This document shows positions 1,469-13,302 of a stretch of 13,435 nucleotides of DNA, one piece after another (the stretch's first letter is position 1; each line of letters begins with the position of its first letter). The DNA lies in contig JBGCDR010000231.1 in NCBI GenBank assembly GCA_045105515.1, forward strand, positions 1 to 13,435, read 5' to 3'. Source of the DNA: Oligoflexales bacterium (GTDB lineage Bacteria > Bdellovibrionota_B > Oligoflexia > Oligoflexales > Bog-1112). A model generated the notes under the pieces. That model saw nothing but the letters and a program-made list of their open reading frames with translations. It made no database searches and had not been told where the DNA came from. Position numbers and translations under genes: made by a program.

Positions 1469-3346
1469 TTATTTAATAGAGTTTATGATAGTTTTCTTGA
1501 AATGCGCGAATTTTTCACCAAAAAGCTCAAAATCCACGATTACTCCTCGGTGAAATTTTCTCACAAAATTTTGTAGAACAAAACGATTGTGGGTAATAGT
1601 TTTGCCCAGTTTCGAATAATTTACTACAAATGATTCAAATCTGTGCTCAGAAAAGTCCTTATGCATTCTTATGATTATTTCTGCAATTTCACTATAAACT
1701 AATTTGGTATTTTGGATTATCTTTTTTTCACAATTTTTTCGCGAAGCATTTTTACATAAATTTTTACTATTCTCTAAAGAAAAATAATTTCGAATCTCTT
1801 TTTTGCTAGATTTTATAAGTTTGTGATAAAGTCTTGAATTAGAACCAAGATTCATGATTTTACCGAGAAAACCTTGGCTAAACATAATGCTAAGTTCAAT
1901 GCGAACATAACCTAGTTCTTCATGAGGAAAACTAAATTTTAGCGATTCGAATCCACTTTCTCTACCTAGGCTTTCAATTTTCTTTTCTAATTTGTCACCT
2001 GTTATTTTATCAGTTTCATAGACCCATTTTTGGGTTCCGCCAAATTGATGATAAAATTGATTTTGGCCGTGTTTGAGATTTCCATTTCTTCTGTGATCCT
2101 TTAAGTTTATTTCTTCGACTCCCTCATGGTCAACATCTTCAAAATGATCAGGGAAATTAATCTCCGTACTTGGCATGCTTTTTTCATGAGTTGCGATAAA
2201 AAATTCAGTTTTTAATTTATGGTTGCTCAGACGTCCAAAAGTTGCACTTCGCTCTTCACGTAAAGCTATATTTGTCTTAATGGTATAGCCATTTTCAAGA
2301 TCCTTTTCAAATGAAGTGTTAATCACTTTGTTCTTTGATTTAGAGGCCCCATATAGAAAGGGTAAAGATAACATCTTTGAGCTTCGATTTCCGTGACTTT
2401 GGGATATACCTTCCACAAAAGTGCTTATGCCTGGATACGAATTATTACAGAGTTTTTGAACCTTTTTGAGGTTTCCTTTTAATACCTCTTTGAAGAGATT
2501 TGGGATTTCAGGTTTAGAAAAATCAAATATAAATTCAAAATACTTTTCTTTAATATGAAATTTTTCAATATCGATTTTTGAAAATGTTCCCTCAATTTCT
2601 GCACCAAAAGAATAAATTTTTTCGTTGACTAAATCGTATTTTATTTTATTCTTTCCAATTTTTTTAAGATGAACTTTCCATTCACCTAGAGCTCGATAAG
2701 CAGGTCCAACGAAGAGGAAGGGATCGTATCCTCCAAAAAAGTGAAAGCTAATTCCACCAATATGGGCAAATACCAGTTGGTCACCTACTGCCCAGTCCTG
2801 CAGTTGCTGCTTGCTAAGTGGTACCTGCAGATGATTTGTATTTTCTAGGTCGGAAAGATTTCTAATAAATCTTTCATAATATTTAGATTTTCCTCGGTGC
2901 CCCATTATAGCTACACCACTTACCAGATTGAGAACCCCTAAATGTGGGGCTAATCCAATACCGATATCAAATGCCTTTTTGCGTATAAGTCGGTAGCCTT
3001 TGTTGTCATTAGGATTACCGATTGGCAAAGGTACTGAAGAAGTTTGTTTTCCGAGTTTAACTAAACGTTTAATTTTGTCACCGTTAATTAAGATAATTGG
3101 TGACATAGAATATTCTAGACCATGGGTACCTGAGTGACCATGCATGAAAGTCAGGGATATAGTGCCATCAAATCCAATATGTATTGGGGTGTGAATATAA
3201 GGACTTTCTCTCTCAATTTCACCAATTGAATCTTTATTAATATTGTGATGGTGATGATTGGGTTTTAACTTTCCAAACGAATATGTGCTGTGTAATGTCA
3301 TTAGGCACAAAGTGACTTTAGTGGTATAGATTAGTTTAGTTGACAT
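1469..3346 (-). CDS. Hypothetical exported protein (625 aa) with His-rich N-terminal region
   Basis: Long uninterrupted ORF with AAAGGGGG just upstream of the ATG. Signal-peptide-like start (MSTKLIYTTKVTLCLMTLHSTYSFG), then NHHHHN and HGHSGTHG. The segment DWAVGDQLVFAHIGGISF reminds me of uncharacterised Bdellovibrionota exported proteins (recollection, unverified). Confidence 0.8.
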   Translation of the reverse strand: MSTKLIYTTKVTLCLMTLHSTYSFGKLKPNHHHHNINKDSIGEIERESPYIHTPIHIGFDGTISLTFMHGHSGTHGLEYSMSPIILINGDKIKRLVKLGKQTSSVPLPIGNPNDNKGYRLIRKKAFDIGIGLAPHLGVLNLVSGVAIMGHRGKSKYYERFIRNLSDLENTNHLQVPLSKQQLQDWAVGDQLVFAHIGGISFHFFGGYDPFLFVGPAYRALGEWKVHLKKIGKNKIKYDLVNEKIYSFGAEIEGTFSKIDIEKFHIKEKYFEFIFDFSKPEIPNLFKEVLKGNLKKVQKLCNNSYPGISTFVEGISQSHGNRSSKMLSLPFLYGASKSKNKVINTSFEKDLENGYTIKTNIALREERSATFGRLSNHKLKTEFFIATHEKSMPSTEINFPDHFEDVDHEGVEEINLKDHRRNGNLKHGQNQFYHQFGGTQKWVYETDKITGDKLEKKIESLGRESGFESLKFSFPHEELGYVRIELSIMFSQGFLGKIMNLGSNSRLYHKLIKSSKKEIRNYFSLENSKNLCKNASRKNCEKKIIQNTKLVYSEIAEIIIRMHKDFSEHRFESFVVNYSKLGKTITHNRFVLQNFVRKFHRGVIVDFELFGEKFAHFKKTIINSIK

Positions 3347-3745: not shown

Positions 3746-6700
3746 ATGATTTCTTCTGCGCTATTGTTTTTCTTATTATTTTCAAATTTGGAGCAATCCG
3801 GTTCCCATATTTCAATTCTTGATCGGAAGCTGATTGCGCAATTAAGAGAGGGCGAAATCTCCAAAAACTCTGATACTGTTTCACCTTACTTCGAAGGAAA
3901 AGAGTTTGATGATCCGATTCCTTCAAGCATATCCTCTTTTGATCAATCAATTTGGTTTGGGCAATATGCAAATCTATTGGAATCTCCTTTCAATCAATAT
4001 GCGCACGTTTTTCTGCTTATCGACCGCTTGATAAAACTAGATAAAATTGAAACCCAAGAGCATAAAAATCGTATTCTTGAAATCCTAAAAAATAAACTTC
4101 CTGAAGATTTTTTTCTATACCTTTCTCCTTTCATAGAAGGTGTTAACGTAATAAACAATGGAAAGAAAGTTGATGAAACTTCTATTAAGGCTAAGGGTTT
4201 AGTTCCTATAAATTTGGATAGATCTCTGTTCGATGCTCGTGGGGAAAATATTCCAAATGAAGGAGTTAAACAGTTATTTGAAGAGCACCTTCGCACTAAA
4301 TGGTTAGATTTTTCAAATTCCCAATCTCGAAAAAGCTATGCCAGCATTCATTTTGAAAGTCCAAAGAAAGTATCAGCCTATGAACTTACTTCGGCAAATG
4401 ACTGTTCTGAACGTGATCCGAGAGACTGGACATTATGGGGAAAAAGCAAAGAAAATGTACAGTGGCATGCAATTGATGTTCAGAAAAACATAAGATTTGA
4501 AAATAGGCATCAGTCCCTAAGATTTTTGCTTGCGGATGAATCGGAAGATTTTACCGACATCAAGCTAGAAATTCACAGTGTGAATAATATTAGTACTGCA
4601 AATTCAGTGCAACTTTCGCGATTGCGATTTTTTGGAGGATCTGCGGATGTAGAAGTTAAAAAGTCCATCTTCGGATTAAAAGAATCATCATTCTTTCATC
4701 AATTGCCAAAAAAGTCGGTTAATTTCTTTTGGGATGTCTCTCTTTATGATAAATTAACTTCAAATCCGAAGAAAAAACTTAAGGATAGTCCAAGGCACTT
4801 TATTTTTGATGATAATTTCGACCTTGCCTCTATTAAGTTGATGATTAAATACTCCAAGAATGATTGGTCTATTGAAAAAGAGATAGAACATGTTCTTGAG
4901 GAAGGGGCAATACCTGAGCATATGGTAGAAATAGAGATTCTACCGTATTTTATTAATCTATGCGAAAATATATGGGGTTATCGCTACAGAGATAAGTTAG
5001 ATAATTTAAGGGTGATCAATCGTGATGGCAGTGACGAACCTTTTTTTCGCAAGATTTCTTCGGCAAATAAGCAAAATGAAATACACCGTTACTTTGCTGA
5101 AGTAGCTCTAAATTCTAATGACCGTTTTGAATTATTAAAATCAATTCTTAATGGTGATAAGGAGCAAATAAGCCTTTTCGATGCGATCAATATAGCCATA
5201 GATCATAAAGACAATACAGTGCCATTAATACTAAATGATGAGAATCAGAAGAAACTAAAAGATTTCTTCAATAGAATGAAAAGGCCTGAGGAAATTGCAG
5301 TTCTTTCAGCATTTTTCTTTCATTTGCCTCAAAAAGATTTAGTTTCTTATTTGGAAAATTCAATAAGAGATAAGGAAGTGATTTCTGATTTGCTCCTATG
5401 TATTAAAAGAATGCCATCTTTAGATAAAAAAAACCTACAATGGCTGTTTTCTCGAATAAATAAAGACGAATTACTTAGCTATCATGATTTAAGTTTGAAG
5501 TCTGAGCTTCTTGAAAAAGGAATTAGTGCTGATCTATTAAATAAGTACAATACGCGATATCCTGATGGGAAGAAGGATACTTTTTCAAATATCATATTTG
5601 AATACATTTCTCGCAGTGGAGATCTAGAACGGGACCCAATGCATGAATTGTATAATTTCGCTCAAGAAAATTCTAGGTTTAAGCTCCCCTTACAGATGCT
5701 ACAAGGTATGTCAGTACCTCCTATTGATCAGCGATCAATCGAGTTGTTTGCTGACTCTATCAATCAGAAGATTCTAGGCGGAGAATTCCACCAAGATGCC
5801 GTAAGTAGTATAATTGATGGTCTTTTATCCCAGGTTGATTTGTCTAGGGATATGGAATCTTTGGCGAAAATATTTGAATATCAACTTGGGTCTCTACTTC
5901 CACTGCAGGATGTGCAAAAAATTGAATGGCTTGATCAGGAACTTACTGGAGGTGTCGATATAGCGGGAATAGATCTTCCTTTTACTCACGATATCTTCGA
6001 TGAACGCTTAATACCTGATGAAACCCAATCAGACTTGATTATGACTCCTACAGCTAACAAAGTTTTGCGAAAAATTGCAGGCCATTGGTTAAGTAAGTCT
6101 CCAGCAATTTTAGAAGGTTCAACTAGTGCTGGTAAAACTAGCTATGTTCAGTATGTTGCAGGTAAAACTCGTACCCCAATGATACGAGTTAACCTATCTA
6201 AATCTACTGGTGTACAAGACCTTCTGGGAAGGTGGGTTGCTGGTTATGAACAGTATAGCTTAGAAGAATTGAGAGCTTATAGTAGTGGGCAGCTTTCTAT
6301 TATTGCCAAATGTTTAGGAACTAGTCTTAAATCGGAAAATAGTGTCGAGCAGATGGTACAAGAAATTTTTAAATGGCAGCAAAAGCCTCATTTTCAAGCT
6401 GGACCAGTTTTAATTGCAATGTTTACGGGAAGTACCATAGTTTTAGATGAAATAAATCTAGCATCTAATGCTGTTATTGAGGGTGTTCTTAATTCTTTAC
6501 TAGATTCTAAAACAGTGACAGTTGATGATCATAAAGGAGAATTAGTTGTCGCACATGCGGATACAAGAGTTTTTGCTACCATGAATCCTGCTAGCTATAT
6601 TGGAAGAAACAAACTGTCCGATGCTTTGAAGTCTCGTTGTACCGTCTTAAAAGTGGATACGCCAAATATTGAAGATATTGTTCAAATATTAAGTGAAAAA

Positions 6701-7954
6701 TATCCAGGCATTTTAGATGTACCAGAACTGCAGCAACTAGTATCAGCCCATAGTGAGTTAGCTAAAATTGCTGAACAAGGAGCAATAGGCAGAGATCTAG
6801 GACGTATTAGTTATACTCTGAGAAACCTTTTTCGAGTGGTAAACAGATTTCAGCATTTCAAAGATTCCACGAATCTATCACGGATGGAATTACTCAGAAG
6901 AGAGTTTGAAGAAGTTTACAAAAGTCCCATCTTTAATTCCCAGGAGAAAATGATTATTGAAGATGCTTTAATGTTAAATATGCCAATCGATGATGATAAT
7001 GACTTTTATGAAAATCTCGACTTTAAGATTTATCCAGAAGAGTTTGTTATAGGTGATATTAAGGTAGCTAGAAAAACAGTTAGTCAGCATGACCAGACAT
7101 CATTGCCAGAAGACTTAAACATAATTATGACTCAACGAACTAAGAAGATTTTCTATCAATTGGTAAAGGCTCTAGAATTGGGAGAAAATGTCGCTTTGGT
7201 TGGAGAGAAAGCTAGTGGAAAAACCATGTTGGCTAAATACTACTCAGCTCTAAAAGGTCAGCCATTTTTTCGCGAAACCTTTAGTCCAGATACAGATAAC
7301 CTTAAGCTCATAGGAAAATATACTCCTAATGGATTTCAATATGGACCATTGATTGAAGCAGGTCATCCAGAGCATGAGGCAGGTATTTATTTAGCTGATG
7401 AAATTAACTTAGCTCCTGATGCTATTCAAGAACGATTAAATTCACTACTTGATAGTGGGCGTTCTTTGACATTAACTGAGGGCAATGGCGATCTGATTAG
7501 ATTTCATCAAGACTTTCGCTTTGTTGCTGCTATGAATCCTCCTACCCGTAAATATGGGGGAAGGAAGAAGATGTCGCAGGCACTACAGAATAGATTAACA
7601 GTCATTTTTGTGGAGAGTCTTGAAAATGAAGAGGAATTTTTAGAAATTTTCTCAGCAATTGGTGAATCAAAGGGTATTCCTAAAAATATCGTCCAGACTC
7701 TAGTTAGTTTGCACTTTTGGGTCAAGCAGCAGATTGAAGACGGTAATATCGGTACAACTGGACCTAAAGATTCTTATGTCTTTTCTATCCGGAAAATTGA
7801 GATGGCCTTTGGTGCTCTCGTAGACCTGAGCGTAATGAAAAAAGATATCCAACAAGCATTTAAGTTGGTGGCAGAAATTTATTATGAATCGATGTTTGAA
7901 GGAGAAGAAGACCGACAGATAGTTCGTGAGTTTGCTCAGGAGTCATGTCAATGA
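3746..7954 (+). CDS. Midasin/MoxR-like tandem AAA+ ATPase (two AAA_5-type modules) with N-terminal F5/8-type-C (discoidin)-like domain
   Basis: AAA1: Walker A GSTSAGKT (6116-6139), Walker B IVLDE-INLA, sensor-1 ATMNP, GRNKLSDALKSR, sensor-2-like YTLRNL. AAA2: Walker A GEKASGKT (7202-7225), YLADE-INLA, AAMNP, GGRKKMSQALQNR, FSIRKI. Discoidin-like motif TKWLDF...YELTSANDCSERDPRDWTLWG...VQL at about 4220-4635. AGGA lies upstream of the ATG. Confidence 0.9.
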   Translation: MISSALLFFLLFSNLEQSGSHISILDRKLIAQLREGEISKNSDTVSPYFEGKEFDDPIPSSISSFDQSIWFGQYANLLESPFNQYAHVFLLIDRLIKLDKIETQEHKNRILEILKNKLPEDFFLYLSPFIEGVNVINNGKKVDETSIKAKGLVPINLDRSLFDARGENIPNEGVKQLFEEHLRTKWLDFSNSQSRKSYASIHFESPKKVSAYELTSANDCSERDPRDWTLWGKSKENVQWHAIDVQKNIRFENRHQSLRFLLADESEDFTDIKLEIHSVNNISTANSVQLSRLRFFGGSADVEVKKSIFGLKESSFFHQLPKKSVNFFWDVSLYDKLTSNPKKKLKDSPRHFIFDDNFDLASIKLMIKYSKNDWSIEKEIEHVLEEGAIPEHMVEIEILPYFINLCENIWGYRYRDKLDNLRVINRDGSDEPFFRKISSANKQNEIHRYFAEVALNSNDRFELLKSILNGDKEQISLFDAINIAIDHKDNTVPLILNDENQKKLKDFFNRMKRPEEIAVLSAFFFHLPQKDLVSYLENSIRDKEVISDLLLCIKRMPSLDKKNLQWLFSRINKDELLSYHDLSLKSELLEKGISADLLNKYNTRYPDGKKDTFSNIIFEYISRSGDLERDPMHELYNFAQENSRFKLPLQMLQGMSVPPIDQRSIELFADSINQKILGGEFHQDAVSSIIDGLLSQVDLSRDMESLAKIFEYQLGSLLPLQDVQKIEWLDQELTGGVDIAGIDLPFTHDIFDERLIPDETQSDLIMTPTANKVLRKIAGHWLSKSPAILEGSTSAGKTSYVQYVAGKTRTPMIRVNLSKSTGVQDLLGRWVAGYEQYSLEELRAYSSGQLSIIAKCLGTSLKSENSVEQMVQEIFKWQQKPHFQAGPVLIAMFTGSTIVLDEINLASNAVIEGVLNSLLDSKTVTVDDHKGELVVAHADTRVFATMNPASYIGRNKLSDALKSRCTVLKVDTPNIEDIVQILSEKYPGILDVPELQQLVSAHSELAKIAEQGAIGRDLGRISYTLRNLFRVVNRFQHFKDSTNLSRMELLRREFEEVYKSPIFNSQEKMIIEDALMLNMPIDDDNDFYENLDFKIYPEEFVIGDIKVARKTVSQHDQTSLPEDLNIIMTQRTKKIFYQLVKALELGENVALVGEKASGKTMLAKYYSALKGQPFFRETFSPDTDNLKLIGKYTPNGFQYGPLIEAGHPEHEAGIYLADEINLAPDAIQERLNSLLDSGRSLTLTEGNGDLIRFHQDFRFVAAMNPPTRKYGGRKKMSQALQNRLTVIFVESLENEEEFLEIFSAIGESKGIPKNIVQTLVSLHFWVKQQIEDGNIGTTGPKDSYVFSIRKIEMAFGALVDLSVMKKDIQQAFKLVAEIYYESMFEGEEDRQIVREFAQESCQ

Positions 7955-10143
7955 ACATCATACTATTATTTTTTTTCCAGGCTATCATATTTGGTTTAGG
8001 CTCCAATAAGGTAAATGTCGAGGCTTGGAAATTTAAAAATTCGATAGGCGCTGCAGAACGAAAGGTAGGGGATATTTTTCCAGCGGTGGTTGATGAACAT
8101 ACTATAGAACTGAAAAAAAACCGCCTCGAATCACTAATTCGTTCTATTTTTTCCGAAGATTCATTATGTCTTGAGATTGGAGAAAAATGGGAGTTCATCG
8201 AATCTTCTAATACCCTCTTTTTTCCAAGTGAGTTCTTGCAACTACCTGAGGAAGCAGCAATTGCCAGTATAATGGACCATTTCGGCTTGCTAAAATATAG
8301 TCCATTTCCAGAAGGGTTTAGATCAAACCTCGGCTTAAGATTATTGTACGATACTGTAGAACGTCTAAGAATCGGACGCTTTCTATCCTCACAATATATG
8401 GGGTATCATGCACTAGAACGGCAAGCATTCCAATTTGATACTCAAAATTACCTAGTAAACCAAAATCATCTTCCTAGGTACCAGCAATTTTGTTTGGGTT
8501 TATTGGAGCAGCACTTGCAACGGGGGACTTCGCAGATAAATCTGGCTCCAGAAGTAAATGATGCGATCAAGGAAGCTAATCATTATGTGGATCGTATTTT
8601 AAATATGCCTTTATCTTCGGAATCGATATTTGGAGATTTTAAGCCTCATGAAATTGAAACACATGCTCTGGAAAGCCAAAAAATTGTAAATAACGATCTT
8701 TGGCCTATTTTTAAAAAGTTAATTGATCAGGATTTGCAAGATATTCAGATGAACGAAAATCAGGACCTTAAACCTGAAGCAACTGAAGGACCCTCAAATG
8801 GTAATCCTCCTCCAAATAGTTCAGGTAATCCGAGCAATCCAAATGGACAACCTATAAGTGAAAATGATTTGGATGAAACGGAACTCATTGATCCTTCATC
8901 CATACCCTTGTCTGATGAACAAAAAAGGGAAATGGAAGAACTTCTCAATAAAATGGGACGCGTTGAGGTAGTTCCGGATGCAGAGAATGGTGATGCAGGA
9001 ACTCAGTCAGGGCAAACAGATGCCCAGGGAGAAGGAGAAGGCCAGGGAGAAGGAGAACAGGGAGAAGGAGAAGGCCAGGGAGAAGGAGAAGGCCAGGGAG
9101 AAGGAGAAGGCCAGGGAGAAGGAGAAGGCCAGGGAGAAGGAGAAGGCCAGGGAGAAGGAGAAGGCCAGGGAGAAGGAGAAGGCCAGGGAGAAGGAGAAGG
9201 CCAAAACAGTAAAAATGGTAACAATGGTCGGGGTCTTGGCAAAGACACCGGAGGGAAAGCACAATCTCAAAGTCACGGGCAAACTTCTCAGCAAGTAGAG
9301 AATAAAAAAAATAGATATAAAAAAATGGCAGAAAATATTCAGGAAAATGTTCATGACTTGATAGATCGCTTTCGCAATAAAAAGCCAGAAAACGTTCTCA
9401 GTAATAATAGATACGAGGAGAGAAAGAGTAGAATAATACATATTATTAACCGCTTAGAGTACGAGTTGAGGATGATTTTTGAGGATCAGTCGGTATTTGA
9501 TTATCAGTCAGGATATGCTTCAGGAGACTATGATTTACAGCGAGGTATTGCATCAGATCTTCGAGAACAAGCTACTGGATTTCGTGATCCTAAGGTTTTT
9601 AGGCGTAAAAAGATACCTCAGGAAAAAAATGTAGAAATCGTTCTATGTCTTGATAAATCTGGGAGCATGAGCGATAGAGATTTGAGTTATGCAAAAGATG
9701 CAGTCATGGCAGTTGCTGAATCTGCAGAAATGCTTAAAATCCCATGGGCTTTGATTTCCTTTGACTCAGTTGTAAATTTATTAAAGGATCTAGATCCAAA
9801 TGGGGATGACTCCTGGAAAAATAAACTCGTGGATATGCAATCGGGTGGAGGAACTGATGATTTAACAGCTCTGAACACAGCTGTAGATCTATTAGAAGAA
9901 CAAGGTAGCGATTCTAGGAAAATTATTCTGTTTATGACAGATGGGCAAGGAGACTATCAGCAAAATATGAGAGTACGTGAGCTAGGTAAGAATGATGATT
10001 ATATAATTATCGGTATTGGTATGGGCGAGGGAACTGGTTTTGTAAAAAATACCTATGAAGAATCCCTTGTTATAAGGGATCTTAGTGATTTACCCCGTTC
10101 CTTAAGCTCTCTATTGGTTGAAGTCATCGCAGAGCAAGATTAA
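7951..10143 (+). CDS. VWA (MIDAS) domain protein, CobT/NorD-like partner of the AAA+ ATPase (730 aa)
   Basis: MIDAS DKSGS (9652-9666), GGGTDD and FMTDG are all present, with a long acidic Gly/Glu/Gln linker. Start set at 7951 rather than 7945 because AGGAG (7938-7942) is 8 nt upstream and the ATG overlaps the upstream stop as ATGA. Confidence 0.9.
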   Translation: MNIILLFFFQAIIFGLGSNKVNVEAWKFKNSIGAAERKVGDIFPAVVDEHTIELKKNRLESLIRSIFSEDSLCLEIGEKWEFIESSNTLFFPSEFLQLPEEAAIASIMDHFGLLKYSPFPEGFRSNLGLRLLYDTVERLRIGRFLSSQYMGYHALERQAFQFDTQNYLVNQNHLPRYQQFCLGLLEQHLQRGTSQINLAPEVNDAIKEANHYVDRILNMPLSSESIFGDFKPHEIETHALESQKIVNNDLWPIFKKLIDQDLQDIQMNENQDLKPEATEGPSNGNPPPNSSGNPSNPNGQPISENDLDETELIDPSSIPLSDEQKREMEELLNKMGRVEVVPDAENGDAGTQSGQTDAQGEGEGQGEGEQGEGEGQGEGEGQGEGEGQGEGEGQGEGEGQGEGEGQGEGEGQGEGEGQNSKNGNNGRGLGKDTGGKAQSQSHGQTSQQVENKKNRYKKMAENIQENVHDLIDRFRNKKPENVLSNNRYEERKSRIIHIINRLEYELRMIFEDQSVFDYQSGYASGDYDLQRGIASDLREQATGFRDPKVFRRKKIPQEKNVEIVLCLDKSGSMSDRDLSYAKDAVMAVAESAEMLKIPWALISFDSVVNLLKDLDPNGDDSWKNKLVDMQSGGGTDDLTALNTAVDLLEEQGSDSRKIILFMTDGQGDYQQNMRVRELGKNDDYIIIGIGMGEGTGFVKNTYEESLVIRDLSDLPRSLSSLLVEVIAEQD
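9025..9201 (+). repeat. Intragenic 18-bp tandem repeat (CAGGGAGAAGGAGAAGGC), 9 identical copies plus one 15-bp copy, encoding QGEGEG
   Basis: Units start at 9025, 9043 (15 bp, lacks GGC), 9058, 9076, 9094, 9112, 9130, 9148, 9166 and 9184. Confidence 0.97.
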
Positions 10144-10236
10144 TACATAGGCGTAAATTTATCCAAAATAGCAGAGAATCTTGTCAAAAATGATAAGTTT
10201 ATGCTTGTCTAAAAAAAATAGTTTTGGAGAGATAAT

Positions 10237-11412
10237 TTGATAAAATCAATTTCTCATTATCTTATTTATTTGCTTGTTGTTTTTGTTGTTATTAAAGGAA
10301 CTACCTCTAATTTTGCTTTCGGACAGCGAGAATTCAAGAAGAGAATCGTTTTTTTTCCTCAGGTACATTATATTCAAGAACTTGAAACCATGGAGCCTAA
10401 AAAAAAAGAAACAATTAGCCTTCAAATACTTAAGTCCCAATTTTATATTTATCACCAGCTTCTCGCAAAGCTCGAAGAGAACCCAGATTTAGCTGTCTTT
10501 AATGAAAGCTTTTATTTTTCTAAGCTTGAACTGTATCGAATATTAAGCAAGAAAGAAAATAAGTTAAGACGCAAATATAGAATTCCTGCTGTTCGGCACG
10601 AAGAATTTAGCTTAATGCCTAATTCTATTGAGAAGGAACTTGCTTCGCAAATACCAGAAAAAGATTTTTATCATCTTGATTGGCAAGCAAATCGTCTGCT
10701 GCATGAGGGCCTAGTTCGTATTAGCATTCCCAAATCATATAAATCCCAATTACCAAAAGTTTTACCAAAGTCGTTAGAGGAACTTAGTCAGATACAAAAA
10801 AAAGTCCTTATCAAATATGGTGCTGGTGATCTTCTAGTTTTACAAGGACATATTAAAAATGCGAAGGCCACATCGGAAACGGGAAAAAGATCAGGTTACC
10901 ATTTTTTGCGTAAGATAGAGAATTATAAAAGCCTGACAATGGATAAGCGCAAATATTCAAGGAAAAATATTCTTAGTATGTGTCCTGATTTAGTGCGTGC
11001 TGAACCAGATTTTGCAAAAGATTTGCAAAGTTTTTTACTTAATCATCCTCATAGTCAAGGGGGATTTTTGGCCATATTTGACCCCTTGAAGTTTTGGTTA
11101 GAGGAAACAAATAAAAATAAGGTAGATCAAGAATGCATTCATTGCGCGAGTATTAACGCAGAATGTCAAGAAATTGAGGATCAACTATTAAACTTGATGC
11201 ACATCTATCATGTTTATTTGACTAGAGAACAAGAAGTAGTTTTTCTCATAAATGATTTTTTATCGCGACAGGAAGATAATATTGAAAATGATGAAGTAGT
11301 CTTAATCTATGGAGCAGCCCATGAATTTGCTGAATATTTTAATGGAGAAGTCCTTGAGTTTGTAAGCTTGCCAGATAGTTATTCTCATTTTTTTGATGAG
11401 TCGGAACCTTAA
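10237..11412 (+). CDS. Exported protein, possible TraB/Tiki/ChaN/EreA-like superfamily hydrolase (391 aa)
   Basis: TTG start with GGAG about 7 nt upstream and a signal-peptide-like N-terminus (…NFAFG). Ordered motifs FFPQVH, VFNES, TREQEV and VLIYGAAH resemble the H…E…R…GxxH pattern of that superfamily. The CDS is well supported and the family call is tentative. Confidence 0.65.
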   Translation: MIKSISHYLIYLLVVFVVIKGTTSNFAFGQREFKKRIVFFPQVHYIQELETMEPKKKETISLQILKSQFYIYHQLLAKLEENPDLAVFNESFYFSKLELYRILSKKENKLRRKYRIPAVRHEEFSLMPNSIEKELASQIPEKDFYHLDWQANRLLHEGLVRISIPKSYKSQLPKVLPKSLEELSQIQKKVLIKYGAGDLLVLQGHIKNAKATSETGKRSGYHFLRKIENYKSLTMDKRKYSRKNILSMCPDLVRAEPDFAKDLQSFLLNHPHSQGGFLAIFDPLKFWLEETNKNKVDQECIHCASINAECQEIEDQLLNLMHIYHVYLTREQEVVFLINDFLSRQEDNIENDEVVLIYGAAHEFAEYFNGEVLEFVSLPDSYSHFFDESEP

Positions 11413-11562: not shown

Positions 11563-13302
11563 TCAAGGTACGGATACTGTACAGCGAAAACCGAGGTCAG
11601 CGTTTGTAGCTGTAATATTACGACTTAAACGAGCTGTGAAAACTCCAACCCTGTCTCCGTCATCGAATGCATTTCCTCGGGTTAATGCTCCGCCGCTACC
11701 ATCACTTCCGGGATAATACTTACCAATAGACTCTGTTGCATTCCAGGTGTCGTCCCAAAAAGATTTGAGAGCATTCGTGGGAATGAGGTCAGAAAGTGGC
11801 ATAGTGCTTGTTCCTACAACTGGTTGAGTATATTGATACCAAGTACTAGCAACAGCTGGAGTAGGTTTTTCTTCGTCATTGAAATAGCTAGTCCATTCCC
11901 ATGCATTTCCAGCTAAATCCCATATCACTTCTCCATTTGAGAGGGTATGAGTTCTTCTTTGATTAAAGGTTCCTGATGAAGATCCTGTACAAGTTGTTTC
12001 TACATAAGCGTTTGCATCGCTAGCATCTGCAGCGCACATATTGGAAGGGTTGTCGTCAGAATGCCCGCGTGCAAGCTCCGCATCTCCCACGGTACCGTTA
12101 CTCCAGTTTGAGGCAACATTCGCTAAGTTAGCTCCAATTGTCATATATTCATCATTGCTTATTAGACGGTAACCTTTTCCGAGGGATGCACATTCTGTCC
12201 TAGCATCTGTCTGAGTGATACTTACCCAAGGAGTACCTGCAGCCTCAGATACTGGGCTACCAGAACTGTCCTTAGCTTCGTACTTCATCACACAAAAATC
12301 GTTGGTGCCGTAATCTGAATCACCTGGTACTAAGATCCAAGTGCCTCCTACACCGATGGATGCACAGTCCAGAGCTGCTCCTAAAGTTCCTGTCACCCCA
12401 AAAACTACGGTACTATCAACAATATTTGCTTCAATGATATCTGCATCACCTGTTACCGTGTAACGGGTTCCCGTTTCATCCCAAAATTCAAAGGTGAAAG
12501 ATGATTTAATCCGGGCAGAAAAAAGAGCATTTGTAATATCAATTGCGCCACCAGCATCTTTTGCAGAAAGATCCATGTATCTATAAGTTGATGTGGTCGT
12601 GCAATCGTCTTGGCCAGCCGCATTACAATCTGCATGCAGCTCAACTGCGCTTCCTGCGACCCCGGCAACGGTATTACCCGTAACCACTTTTGGACCTAGG
12701 CCCGTGGTCAGGGCCGCGGTATAAGTCGCGGTGGCAATACAGGCAGTGGCTCCATCGCTGCTACAGTTGGCTCGTGCTTCCTCGGTGGCGGAGCCAGCGA
12801 CTCCGGCAACGGTATTGGTGGTGATGACCTTGGCAGCAAGGCCAGTGGTCAGGGCCGCAGCGTAAGTTGCGGTGGCGGCACAGTCGGTGGCCCCATCGCT
12901 GCCACAGTCGGCTTTTTGTTCCACGGCGCTTCCTGCGACCCCGGCAACGGTATTACCCGAAACCACTTTGGGGCCTAGGCCGGTTACTAATCCTGCAGTA
13001 TAAGTTGCTGTAGCAATACAGGCGGTTTCCCCATCGCTGCTACAGTTAGCCCGCGCTTCTTCGGTAGCCGAACCGGCAACGCCAGCGACGGTGTTAGTGG
13101 TGATTACCTTAGCAGCGAGGCCTGTGGTCAAGGCTGCAGCGTAAGTTGCGGTGGCAGCGCAATCGGTGGCCCCATCACTGCCGCAGTCGGCTTTTTGTTC
13201 GACAGCACTTCCAGCTACTCCAGCAACAGTGTTGCCACTCACAATTTTAGGACCTAGGCCAGTAACGAGTGCAGCAGTATAAGTGGCAGTAGCAATTAGC
13301 TC
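11563..13302 (-). CDS. Repeat-containing surface/adhesin-like protein with C-terminal FGE-sulfatase/C-type-lectin-fold domain, apparently 5'-truncated (possible pseudogene or assembly break)
   Basis: C-terminal domain (about 11566-12345) has FCVMKYEA, PWVSITQTDARTEC, YRLISNDEY, IWDLAGNAWEW and RG…GFRC. The frame is open beyond the called GTG (13242) to 13302 with repeat sequence (IATATYTAALVTGLGPKIV), bounded by TAG at 13303-13305. There is no ATG or signal peptide. Confidence 0.75.
   Translation of the reverse strand, partial: ELIATATYTAALVTGLGPKIVSGNTVAGVAGSAVEQKADCGSDGATDCAATATYAAALTTGLAAKVITTNTVAGVAGSATEEARANCSSDGETACIATATYTAGLVTGLGPKVVSGNTVAGVAGSAVEQKADCGSDGATDCAATATYAAALTTGLAAKVITTNTVAGVAGSATEEARANCSSDGATACIATATYTAALTTGLGPKVVTGNTVAGVAGSAVELHADCNAAGQDDCTTTSTYRYMDLSAKDAGGAIDITNALFSARIKSSFTFEFWDETGTRYTVTGDADIIEANIVDSTVVFGVTGTLGAALDCASIGVGGTWILVPGDSDYGTNDFCVMKYEAKDSSGSPVSEAAGTPWVSITQTDARTECASLGKGYRLISNDEYMTIGANLANVASNWSNGTVGDAELARGHSDDNPSNMCAADASDANAYVETTCTGSSSGTFNQRRTHTLSNGEVIWDLAGNAWEWTSYFNDEEKPTPAVASTWYQYTQPVVGTSTMPLSDLIPTNALKSFWDDTWNATESIGKYYPGSDGSGGALTRGNAFDDGDRVGVFTARLSRNITATNADLGFRCTVSVP
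12601..13296 (-). repeat. Five alternating 46/47-aa coding repeats (A-B-A-B-A'; 279-bp higher-order period), each with a C-x7-C pair
   Basis: A1 13296-13159, B1 13158-13018, A2 13017-12880, B2 12879-12739, A3 12738-12601. Consensus xATATYxAALxTGLxxKVxxxNTVAGVAGSAxE…CxSDGxTxC. Confidence 0.93.

Follow-up and report, generated by a model that had tools for sequence, protein, structure and literature searches.

A two-gene MoxR-vWA system with a two-module, midasin-like ATPase in an Oligoflexales bacterium

Concatenated rings of six AAA+ modules have been treated as peculiar to dynein and midasin (Rea1/Mdn1), and it has been proposed that they arose from a single MoxR protein early in eukaryotes (PMC3495828, PMC4047620). 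Midasin carries its six modules in one chain together with a long helical linker, an acidic tether and a vWA domain with a metal-ion-dependent adhesion site (MIDAS), and it removes assembly factors from pre-60S ribosomes. In the NorQ-NorD, CbbQ-CbbO and CobS-CobT systems, an ATPase with one AAA module per chain is encoded next to a vWA gene, and NorD was reported to bind the NorQ hexamer with a finger in the pore and its N-domain on a lid (PMC13036017). In jumbo phages, a MoxR ATPase serving virion assembly is accompanied by a metallopeptidase-vWA cochaperone (PMC7824862). Here we describe two overlapping genes at positions 3746 to 10143 of the forward strand of contig JBGCDR010000231.1 (C231 in our numbering) from the 6.3-Mb draft genome of an Oligoflexales bacterium (G000); the whole contig of 13,435 nucleotides is referred to as the window. 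The first gene encodes an ATPase with two AAA+ modules and the second gene encodes its vWA partner.

We place this system in the MoxR-vWA clade; its mode of action would be that of NorQD and midasin, but it is a member of neither family. It had the features of the clade as defined in PMC7159879, namely an AAA+ domain with a helix-2 insert and a linked vWA domain with an intact MIDAS. Midasin was its closest solved relative in sequence and shared with it a predicted side-by-side geometry, five-helix lids, a helical H2 insert in one module per pair, an acidic tether and a MIDAS vWA domain. In contrast to midasin, the window ATPase had two modules rather than six, the vWA domain was on a separate gene, the insert was in the first and not in the second module of the pair, and no ribosome role is known for it. 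The long helical linker was also missing, the partner had a CobT-type N-domain and both proteins had export-like leaders. With NorQ-NorD, CbbQ-CbbO and CobS-CobT, the pair shared the adjacency of the genes, the single-module fold (2.3-2.5 Å) and the plan of the NorD/CobT-type partners, which consists of an N-domain, a linker, a finger and a vWA domain. However, the window ATPase had two fused modules behind a 745-residue N-terminal extension, no client gene was nearby, and the match to single modules was far weaker (mean of 71 bits compared to 164 for midasin AAA3). The jumbo-phage cochaperone is likewise a vWA protein fused to an N-terminal metallopeptidase domain, but the window ATPase had two modules and the peptidase motif of its partner was lost. 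The six-module giant proteins of Omnitrophota and Planctomycetota had the same module family, N-domain, vWA domain and odd/even pattern, although they combined three module pairs and the partner in one chain of 4000-7500 amino acids. Finally, type II double-ring AAA+ proteins (p97, ClpB, Rix7) have stacked modules, which the predicted window model did not match.

Neither two-module nor six-module proteins of this kind were found described for bacteria in the literature searched, which did not extend to subscription papers and comparative-genomics supplements, and the query 'bacterial midasin' returned 0 papers. A figure legend in bioRxiv 2023.11.21.568195 lists AAA_5 among the domains of giant proteins, and the accessible part of that preprint does not mention midasin.

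The two-module ATPase and its predicted geometry

The ATPase gene (3746..7954, forward strand) encodes 1402 amino acids and was characterised by the list of open reading frames (ORFs), Pfam, motif mapping and a structure model. AAA+ module 1 (6035..6979) contained a Walker A motif (6116-6139, GSTSAGKT at residue 791), a helical H2 insert (6236-6388), a Walker B motif (6446-6463) and a five-helix lid. Module 2 (7121..7951) also had a five-helix lid as well as Walker A (7202-7225, GEKASGKT at residue 1153) and Walker B (7397-7414) motifs, and it was without a long insert. Pfam placed AAA_5 on two stretches of the protein (E 3e-36). Thus, two tandem modules with intact Walker motifs, which had been proposed in an earlier sequence-only reading of this DNA, were recovered. 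The motifs that it had called midasin-like were all present, namely DEINLA (residues 901 and 1218), A(T/A)MNP (944 and 1261), GRxxxSxALxxR (953 and 1272) and YTLR/FSIR (1023/1346), but parts of them were also seen in the single-module MoxR consensus. The midasin lid was matched weakly by Pfam (E 6e-4, below the cut-off), and no NCBIfam family matched the window proteins at its cut-off.

Conservation of the active sites was assessed in 47 family rows, which included some duplicates and from which three divergent rows of genome G039 were excluded and three rows were reassigned to other groups. The Walker A lysine, the sensor-1 asparagine and the arginine finger were present in 47/47 rows in both modules, and the Walker B glutamate in 47/47 rows in one module and 46/47 in the other. 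Judged by sequence, both modules of the window ATPase are catalytically complete. The helix-2 insert comprised about 50 amino acids in module 1 and was absent from module 2, whereas a long insert is found in modules 2, 4 and 6 of midasins and in module 2 of the Vulcanimicrobiota-type two-module proteins. In the ATPases of loci L027 and L032, it was module 2 that carried the long insert, which is also its place in midasin pairs.

Residues 739-1402 were modelled as a single chain from 47 family sequences, with a predicted local distance difference test score (pLDDT) of 90.7 and a predicted template modelling score (pTM) of 0.89. Each small subdomain had five helices, the number described for dynein and, as a prediction, for midasin (PMC4047620). 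The whole model was superposed on residues 117-825 of Mdn1 (6or5_A; 505 residues, 3.1 Å, Z 17.8), on Rea1 (5jcs; 498 residues, 5.2 Å, Z 21.0) and on adjacent dynein modules (522-540 residues, 3.8-4.4 Å, Z 21-23 in the top five rows). Stacked-ring proteins, on the other hand, fitted poorly (p97 18.7 Å, Rix7 13.6 Å, NVL 13.0 Å), and NorQ and CbbQ fitted one module of the model (2.3-2.5 Å, Z 20-21). Since the model superposed on consecutive modules of Mdn1, Rea1 and dynein but poorly on stacked rings, the two modules are predicted to lie side by side, and one ATPase chain would represent one third of a ring. In the predicted model, the window ATPase thus had the consecutive side-by-side modules with five-helix small subdomains that characterise midasin.

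The partner gene and the distribution of the pair

The partner gene (7951..10143, forward strand) starts at an ATG within an ATGA overlap (7951-7954), as the earlier reading had noticed. This start, which gives 730 amino acids, had a GGAG 8 nucleotides upstream and was the same in the close homologue P0121; an alternative start at 7945 would give 732 amino acids. The hydrophobic leader (7951-8010) was followed by a CobT-N/zinc-peptidase-like domain without its HExxH motif (8104..8748), a low-complexity linker rich in D/E/G/Q, in which the unit GEGEGQ occurred nine times (8752..9294), and a conserved pre-vWA segment with the vWA domain (9487..10140, MIDAS at 9652-9666); Pfam found vWA families in the partner. 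Residues 270-450 contained 23% D/E and 24% G, and the MIDAS was intact (DKSGS at residue 570, GGGT at 634, TDG at 665). By analogy with NorD, the pre-vWA segment is likely a pore-inserting finger.

In predicted structure, the N-domain matched CobT-type and vWA-linked clusters (TM score 0.61-0.79), and its sequence matches carried CobT_C. The HExxH motif was kept in 19 of the 30 partners having the N-domain and in all 17 giant rows but was lost in the window and in its paralogue, and this domain is likely a dead peptidase scaffold in the window; in many relatives it is likely to be catalytically active as a zinc peptidase. A model of the partner folded without an alignment was unusable (pLDDT 36.7). 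Because the partner follows the NorD-like plan of N-domain, linker, finger and vWA domain, it is a standard CobT/NorD-type adaptor and not a severed midasin tail. Therefore, the term 'split midasin' is not supported if taken literally; the acidic linker and the MIDAS vWA domain of the sequence-only reading were found, but its 'helical region' was really the CobT-N/peptidase-like domain. The partners of L027 (10337-15496) and L032 (10579-15186) were 1500-1700 amino acids long, with about 1000 extra residues between the N-domain and the vWA domain.

In a search with the ATPase region, 25 two-module proteins (37-100% identical) ranked ahead of midasin fragments and a single protein from Omnitrophota, and more two-module proteins as well as giants were among the best 150 matches of an exhaustive search. 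The named loci came from Oligoflexales, Deltaproteobacteria/Myxococcota, UBP9/Vulcanimicrobiota/Eremiobacterota and metagenome-assembled genomes (MAGs) of Ca. Anammoxibacter. Carriers comprised 3/131 genomes of the same phylum and 5/301 and 13/201 genomes in two other phylum samples; the two-gene system is rare and patchy in occurrence. From the loci encoding a two-module ATPase we selected 35, omitting near-duplicates and fragments. A vWA or N-domain partner gene was adjacent to the ATPase or within about 1 kb of it in 32 of them, while in the remaining 3 the sequence ended within 350 nucleotides of the ATPase stop; four partners appeared as two ORFs. Co-conservation of the two genes, a synteny check that had been named beforehand, was accordingly observed in 32/35 loci.

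Across the 35 loci, no other neighbour was common beyond close kin except a gene of about 140 amino acids that was absent from the window. This third gene was located between or after the pair (L014:3834-4265, L015:10184-10597, L018:10112-10573, L027:15605-16039, L032:15188-15634), was restricted to myxobacterial-type and Vulcanimicrobiota-type loci and had no Pfam match; its derivation from an AAA module was not confirmed (hhalign p 0.08 at best). The third components of ternary MoxR-vWA conflict systems (VMAP, iSTAND, FtsH, beta-propeller) were found neither in the window nor in the paralogue locus. The paralogous ATPase-partner pair was encoded in the same genome (contig C218:2662-9110, L009), with 50% identity in the ATPase region, an equally tight overlap, hydrophobic leaders on both proteins and the peptidase motif lost too. 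The nearest named locus, L013 from an Oligoflexales MAG, had three neighbours in common with C218.

The family also varied in size and composition. Its minimal members consisted of an ATPase of about 720-780 amino acids plus the partner, and in P0258 (1236 amino acids) the two-module ATPase was fused to C-terminal MORN and leucine-rich repeats. One genome of the same order encoded three divergent two-module ATPases (L154:7193-10612, L155:2916-6056, L156:3235-6677), two of them adjoining vWA genes without an N-domain match and one adjoining an ankyrin gene, as well as a protein of 2507 amino acids that combined AAA_5 with a transglutaminase domain (L158:5998-13521). In L028, two small ORFs of 104 and 76 amino acids (10004-10551) separated the ATPase from the partner; we take them to be similar to a toxin-antitoxin-type pair. 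A pattern scan revealed no viral relatives. Phage and plasmid matches were weak and partial, and the seven inspected were single-module genes.

Relation to midasin and to naturally triplicated proteins

The best solved sequence matches of the ATPase were midasins (E 8e-79 to 1e-74), followed by CbbQ and NorQ (6e-11 to 5e-4), in agreement with the earlier description of the ATPase as midasin-like. The profiles of the window modules scored highest with the bacterial two-module groups (means up to 202 bits), compared to 164 bits for midasin AAA3 and a mean of 71 and a maximum of 121 bits for 21 single modules. Two trees were built, one from 195 of 369 extracted modules (161 columns) and one from 125 modules (221 columns) with the Clp and G039 rows dropped. 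In these trees, which contained few single-module rows and excluded dynein and VWA8, support was given by the Shimodaira-Hasegawa-like approximate likelihood ratio test (SH-aLRT) from short LG+G4 searches. The multi-module rows grouped apart from the sampled single modules with supports of 92 (three G039 rows outside) and 99.6 in the first and second tree, respectively, and none of the six midasin clades included the window modules.

The approximately unbiased (AU) test, with 10,000 replicates and the same short LG+G4 searches, rejected the grouping of all bacterial modules into a clade to which midasin does not belong (p 0.004). It rejected neither a separate clade of midasin (p 0.67) nor a common odd/even origin (p 0.42), nor the pairing of the window modules with the midasin odd or even modules (p 0.12 and 0.31); a further pairing had a p value of 0.08, and a constraint that placed the window modules with six single modules of the NorQ-like kind was again not rejected (p 0.19). 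Thus, the trees appear to group the window modules with midasin and apart from the sampled single MoxR proteins, with both a shared two-module ancestor and an independent origin of midasin compatible with them. The label 'architectural intermediate', given by the sequence-only reading, stands.

The planctomycete, Omnitrophota and other giants (4000-7500 amino acids) had six modules and then the N-domain and the vWA domain of the partner in one chain. This fusion provided independent genomic support for the partnership of the ATPase and the partner. In P0265, the three module pairs were 87-91% identical and the homologous spacers between them 31-41% identical, while in four other giants the module pairs were 39-46% identical. 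P0265 (4471 amino acids) had a hydrophobic leader. A unit made up of a TPR-containing spacer and two AAA modules had recently been triplicated in this protein and was followed by an HExxH domain and a vWA domain; the N-terminus of the two-module protein of L031 matched P0265 at three places. The giant modules sorted by odd and even position in the trees, and the two modules of Anammoxibacter L028 joined the odd and the even group (SH-aLRT 96 and 97). Garbarino and Gibbons reportedly made an odd/even dimer-triplication proposal in 2002.

Proposed mechanism, alternatives and genomic setting

We consider it reasonably probable that the pair forms a trimeric six-site ring with one vWA partner, which pulls on a client at the expense of ATP and includes an export step. 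Three ATPase chains would close into a midasin/dynein-type ring, as suggested by the side-by-side geometry and the natural triplications. One partner would dock with its pre-vWA finger in the pore, its N-domain on a lid and its acidic linker as a tether, by comparison with NorQD and the fused giants. Its MIDAS would grip the client, and ATP turnover would pull or twist it. Both subunits may act after export, with the envelope and an ATP-containing host or prey cell as the two conceivable sites.

The N-terminal 745 or so residues of the ATPase, which the sequence-only reading had not described, comprised a hydrophobic leader, a discoidin-like domain and a helical region. The signal-peptide-like leader (3746..3805) was assigned by a crude hydropathy rule, and export would follow from it. 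The discoidin (F5/8 type C)-like insertion (4193..4633), found in some homologues only, had no direct Pfam match in the window ATPase and was detected through the PF00754 region of P0006 (E 1e-9). The unnamed, probably helical region (4733..5980) had no match in an atlas search, and its last 260 or so amino acids (residues 480-745) were common to homologues of the deltaproteobacterial/myxobacterial type (hhalign 95.8%). In this genome, leaders were present on all four proteins encoded at the two loci and on 0/11 other AAA+ matches, and among the scored ATPases on 10/12 of the window type compared to 0/14 others. A plastid-like 'S/A-A/G-F' leader motif of the paralogue group was dropped, as it occurred in only 30 of the 1264 leader-bearing ORFs of the genome.

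The genome also encoded three secretins and six full-length TLC/NTT nucleotide transporters (on contigs C74, C181, C166, C40, C393 and C190). TLC genes were found in all 15 other genomes of the same family and in 1/115 remaining genomes of the phylum, a distribution that suggests a host- or prey-associated life with ATP available outside. The leaders, the discoidin-like domain and the six nucleotide importers indicate that the machine may be exported, and we judge the export of both window subunits to be about evenly balanced. Relatives without leaders had long low-complexity N-termini on both subunits, which presumably resemble type III export signals. Among myxobacterial-type genomes, at least three copies of FlhA/SctV were found in 5/7 carriers and 4/59 non-carriers (Fisher p 3e-4); shared ancestry and genome size confound this link, the FlhA/SctV family does not tell flagellar gates from those of injectisomes, and the link serves as a lead only.

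Several observations weigh against the exported trimeric ring. AlphaFold may favour the side-by-side geometry since it knows dynein and midasin, and the model is of a single chain. The 35 loci include many that are closely related, and no conserved neighbour across the loci indicated a client. The leader rule flagged 1264 of 3754 soluble ORFs in the genome, and P0242, which belongs to the same clade but was not among the scored ATPases, had no leader at its listed start. Moreover, TLC genes were in all 16 genomes of the family and the system in 2, so that TLC was not predictive of the system.

The same ring and partner could instead work in the cytoplasm of the producing cell, tethered to the membrane by their hydrophobic N-termini, and serve a native complex as a chaperone for assembly or metal insertion similar to CobST/NorQD. 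ATP is normally cytoplasmic, the partner is built on the CobT/NorD plan, and the single modules matched NorQ and CbbQ at 2.3-2.5 Å. However, a cytoplasmic chaperone of this kind fits less well with the lack of a conserved client gene near the pair, the patchy occurrence (3/131, 5/301 and 13/201 genomes), the discoidin-like domain, the short hydrophobic core of the ATPase leader and the low-complexity N-termini on both subunits of leaderless relatives, and we regard it as unlikely. Stacked rings are the usual plan of two-module AAA+ proteins, and six chains might form two stacked homohexameric rings with 12 sites, like p97, ClpB and Rix7. The conserved arginine fingers of both modules are compatible with either plan, but the model fitted stacked-ring proteins at 13-19 Å compared to 3-5 Å for adjacent ring modules, and the triplicated single-chain relatives had exactly six modules; this arrangement is quite improbable. 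Most improbable of all is a eukaryotic midasin fragment that was transferred and then split: although midasin was the best solved match and the AU test tolerated the odd/even pairing (p 0.12, 0.31) and rejected the all-bacterial clade (p 0.004), bacterial two-module groups outscored every midasin module (up to 202 compared to 164 bits), the window modules were outside all six midasin clades, and the partner N-domain profile was not detected in midasin rows.

Elsewhere in the window, a 559-amino-acid ORF (11563-13242, reverse strand) contained several repeats with Cys residues and, at its C-terminus, a domain similar to FGE-sulfatase that was matched at the Pfam cut-off, with no link to the pair in other loci. 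Four further ORFs (113-643 and 10237-11412 on the forward strand, 812-1297 and 1469-3346 on the reverse strand), three of them with hydrophobic N-terminal leaders, had sub-threshold Pfam matches only, and none was common to other loci. Promoter and terminator counts in the window were the same as in shuffled sequence.

Going beyond the trimeric ring itself, we tentatively suggest, as an idea that is rather doubtful in its entirety, that the two-gene system retains an ancestral two-module unit. Rings of six modules in one chain would have been derived from this unit more than once among bacteria and a single time in the lineage that led to both midasin and dynein, and the system would now be an exported two-subunit motor that remodels host or prey proteins in this nucleotide-importing lineage. 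The bacterial two-module family and its triplicated relatives may represent a missing step toward six-module rings, whose origin thereby becomes open to phylogenetic and structural tests. The minimal members would offer a compact system, suited to expression, for studying the ring-MIDAS cycle of midasin. If the export is true, the pair would be an ATP-driven machine that acts outside the cytoplasm in which it is produced.

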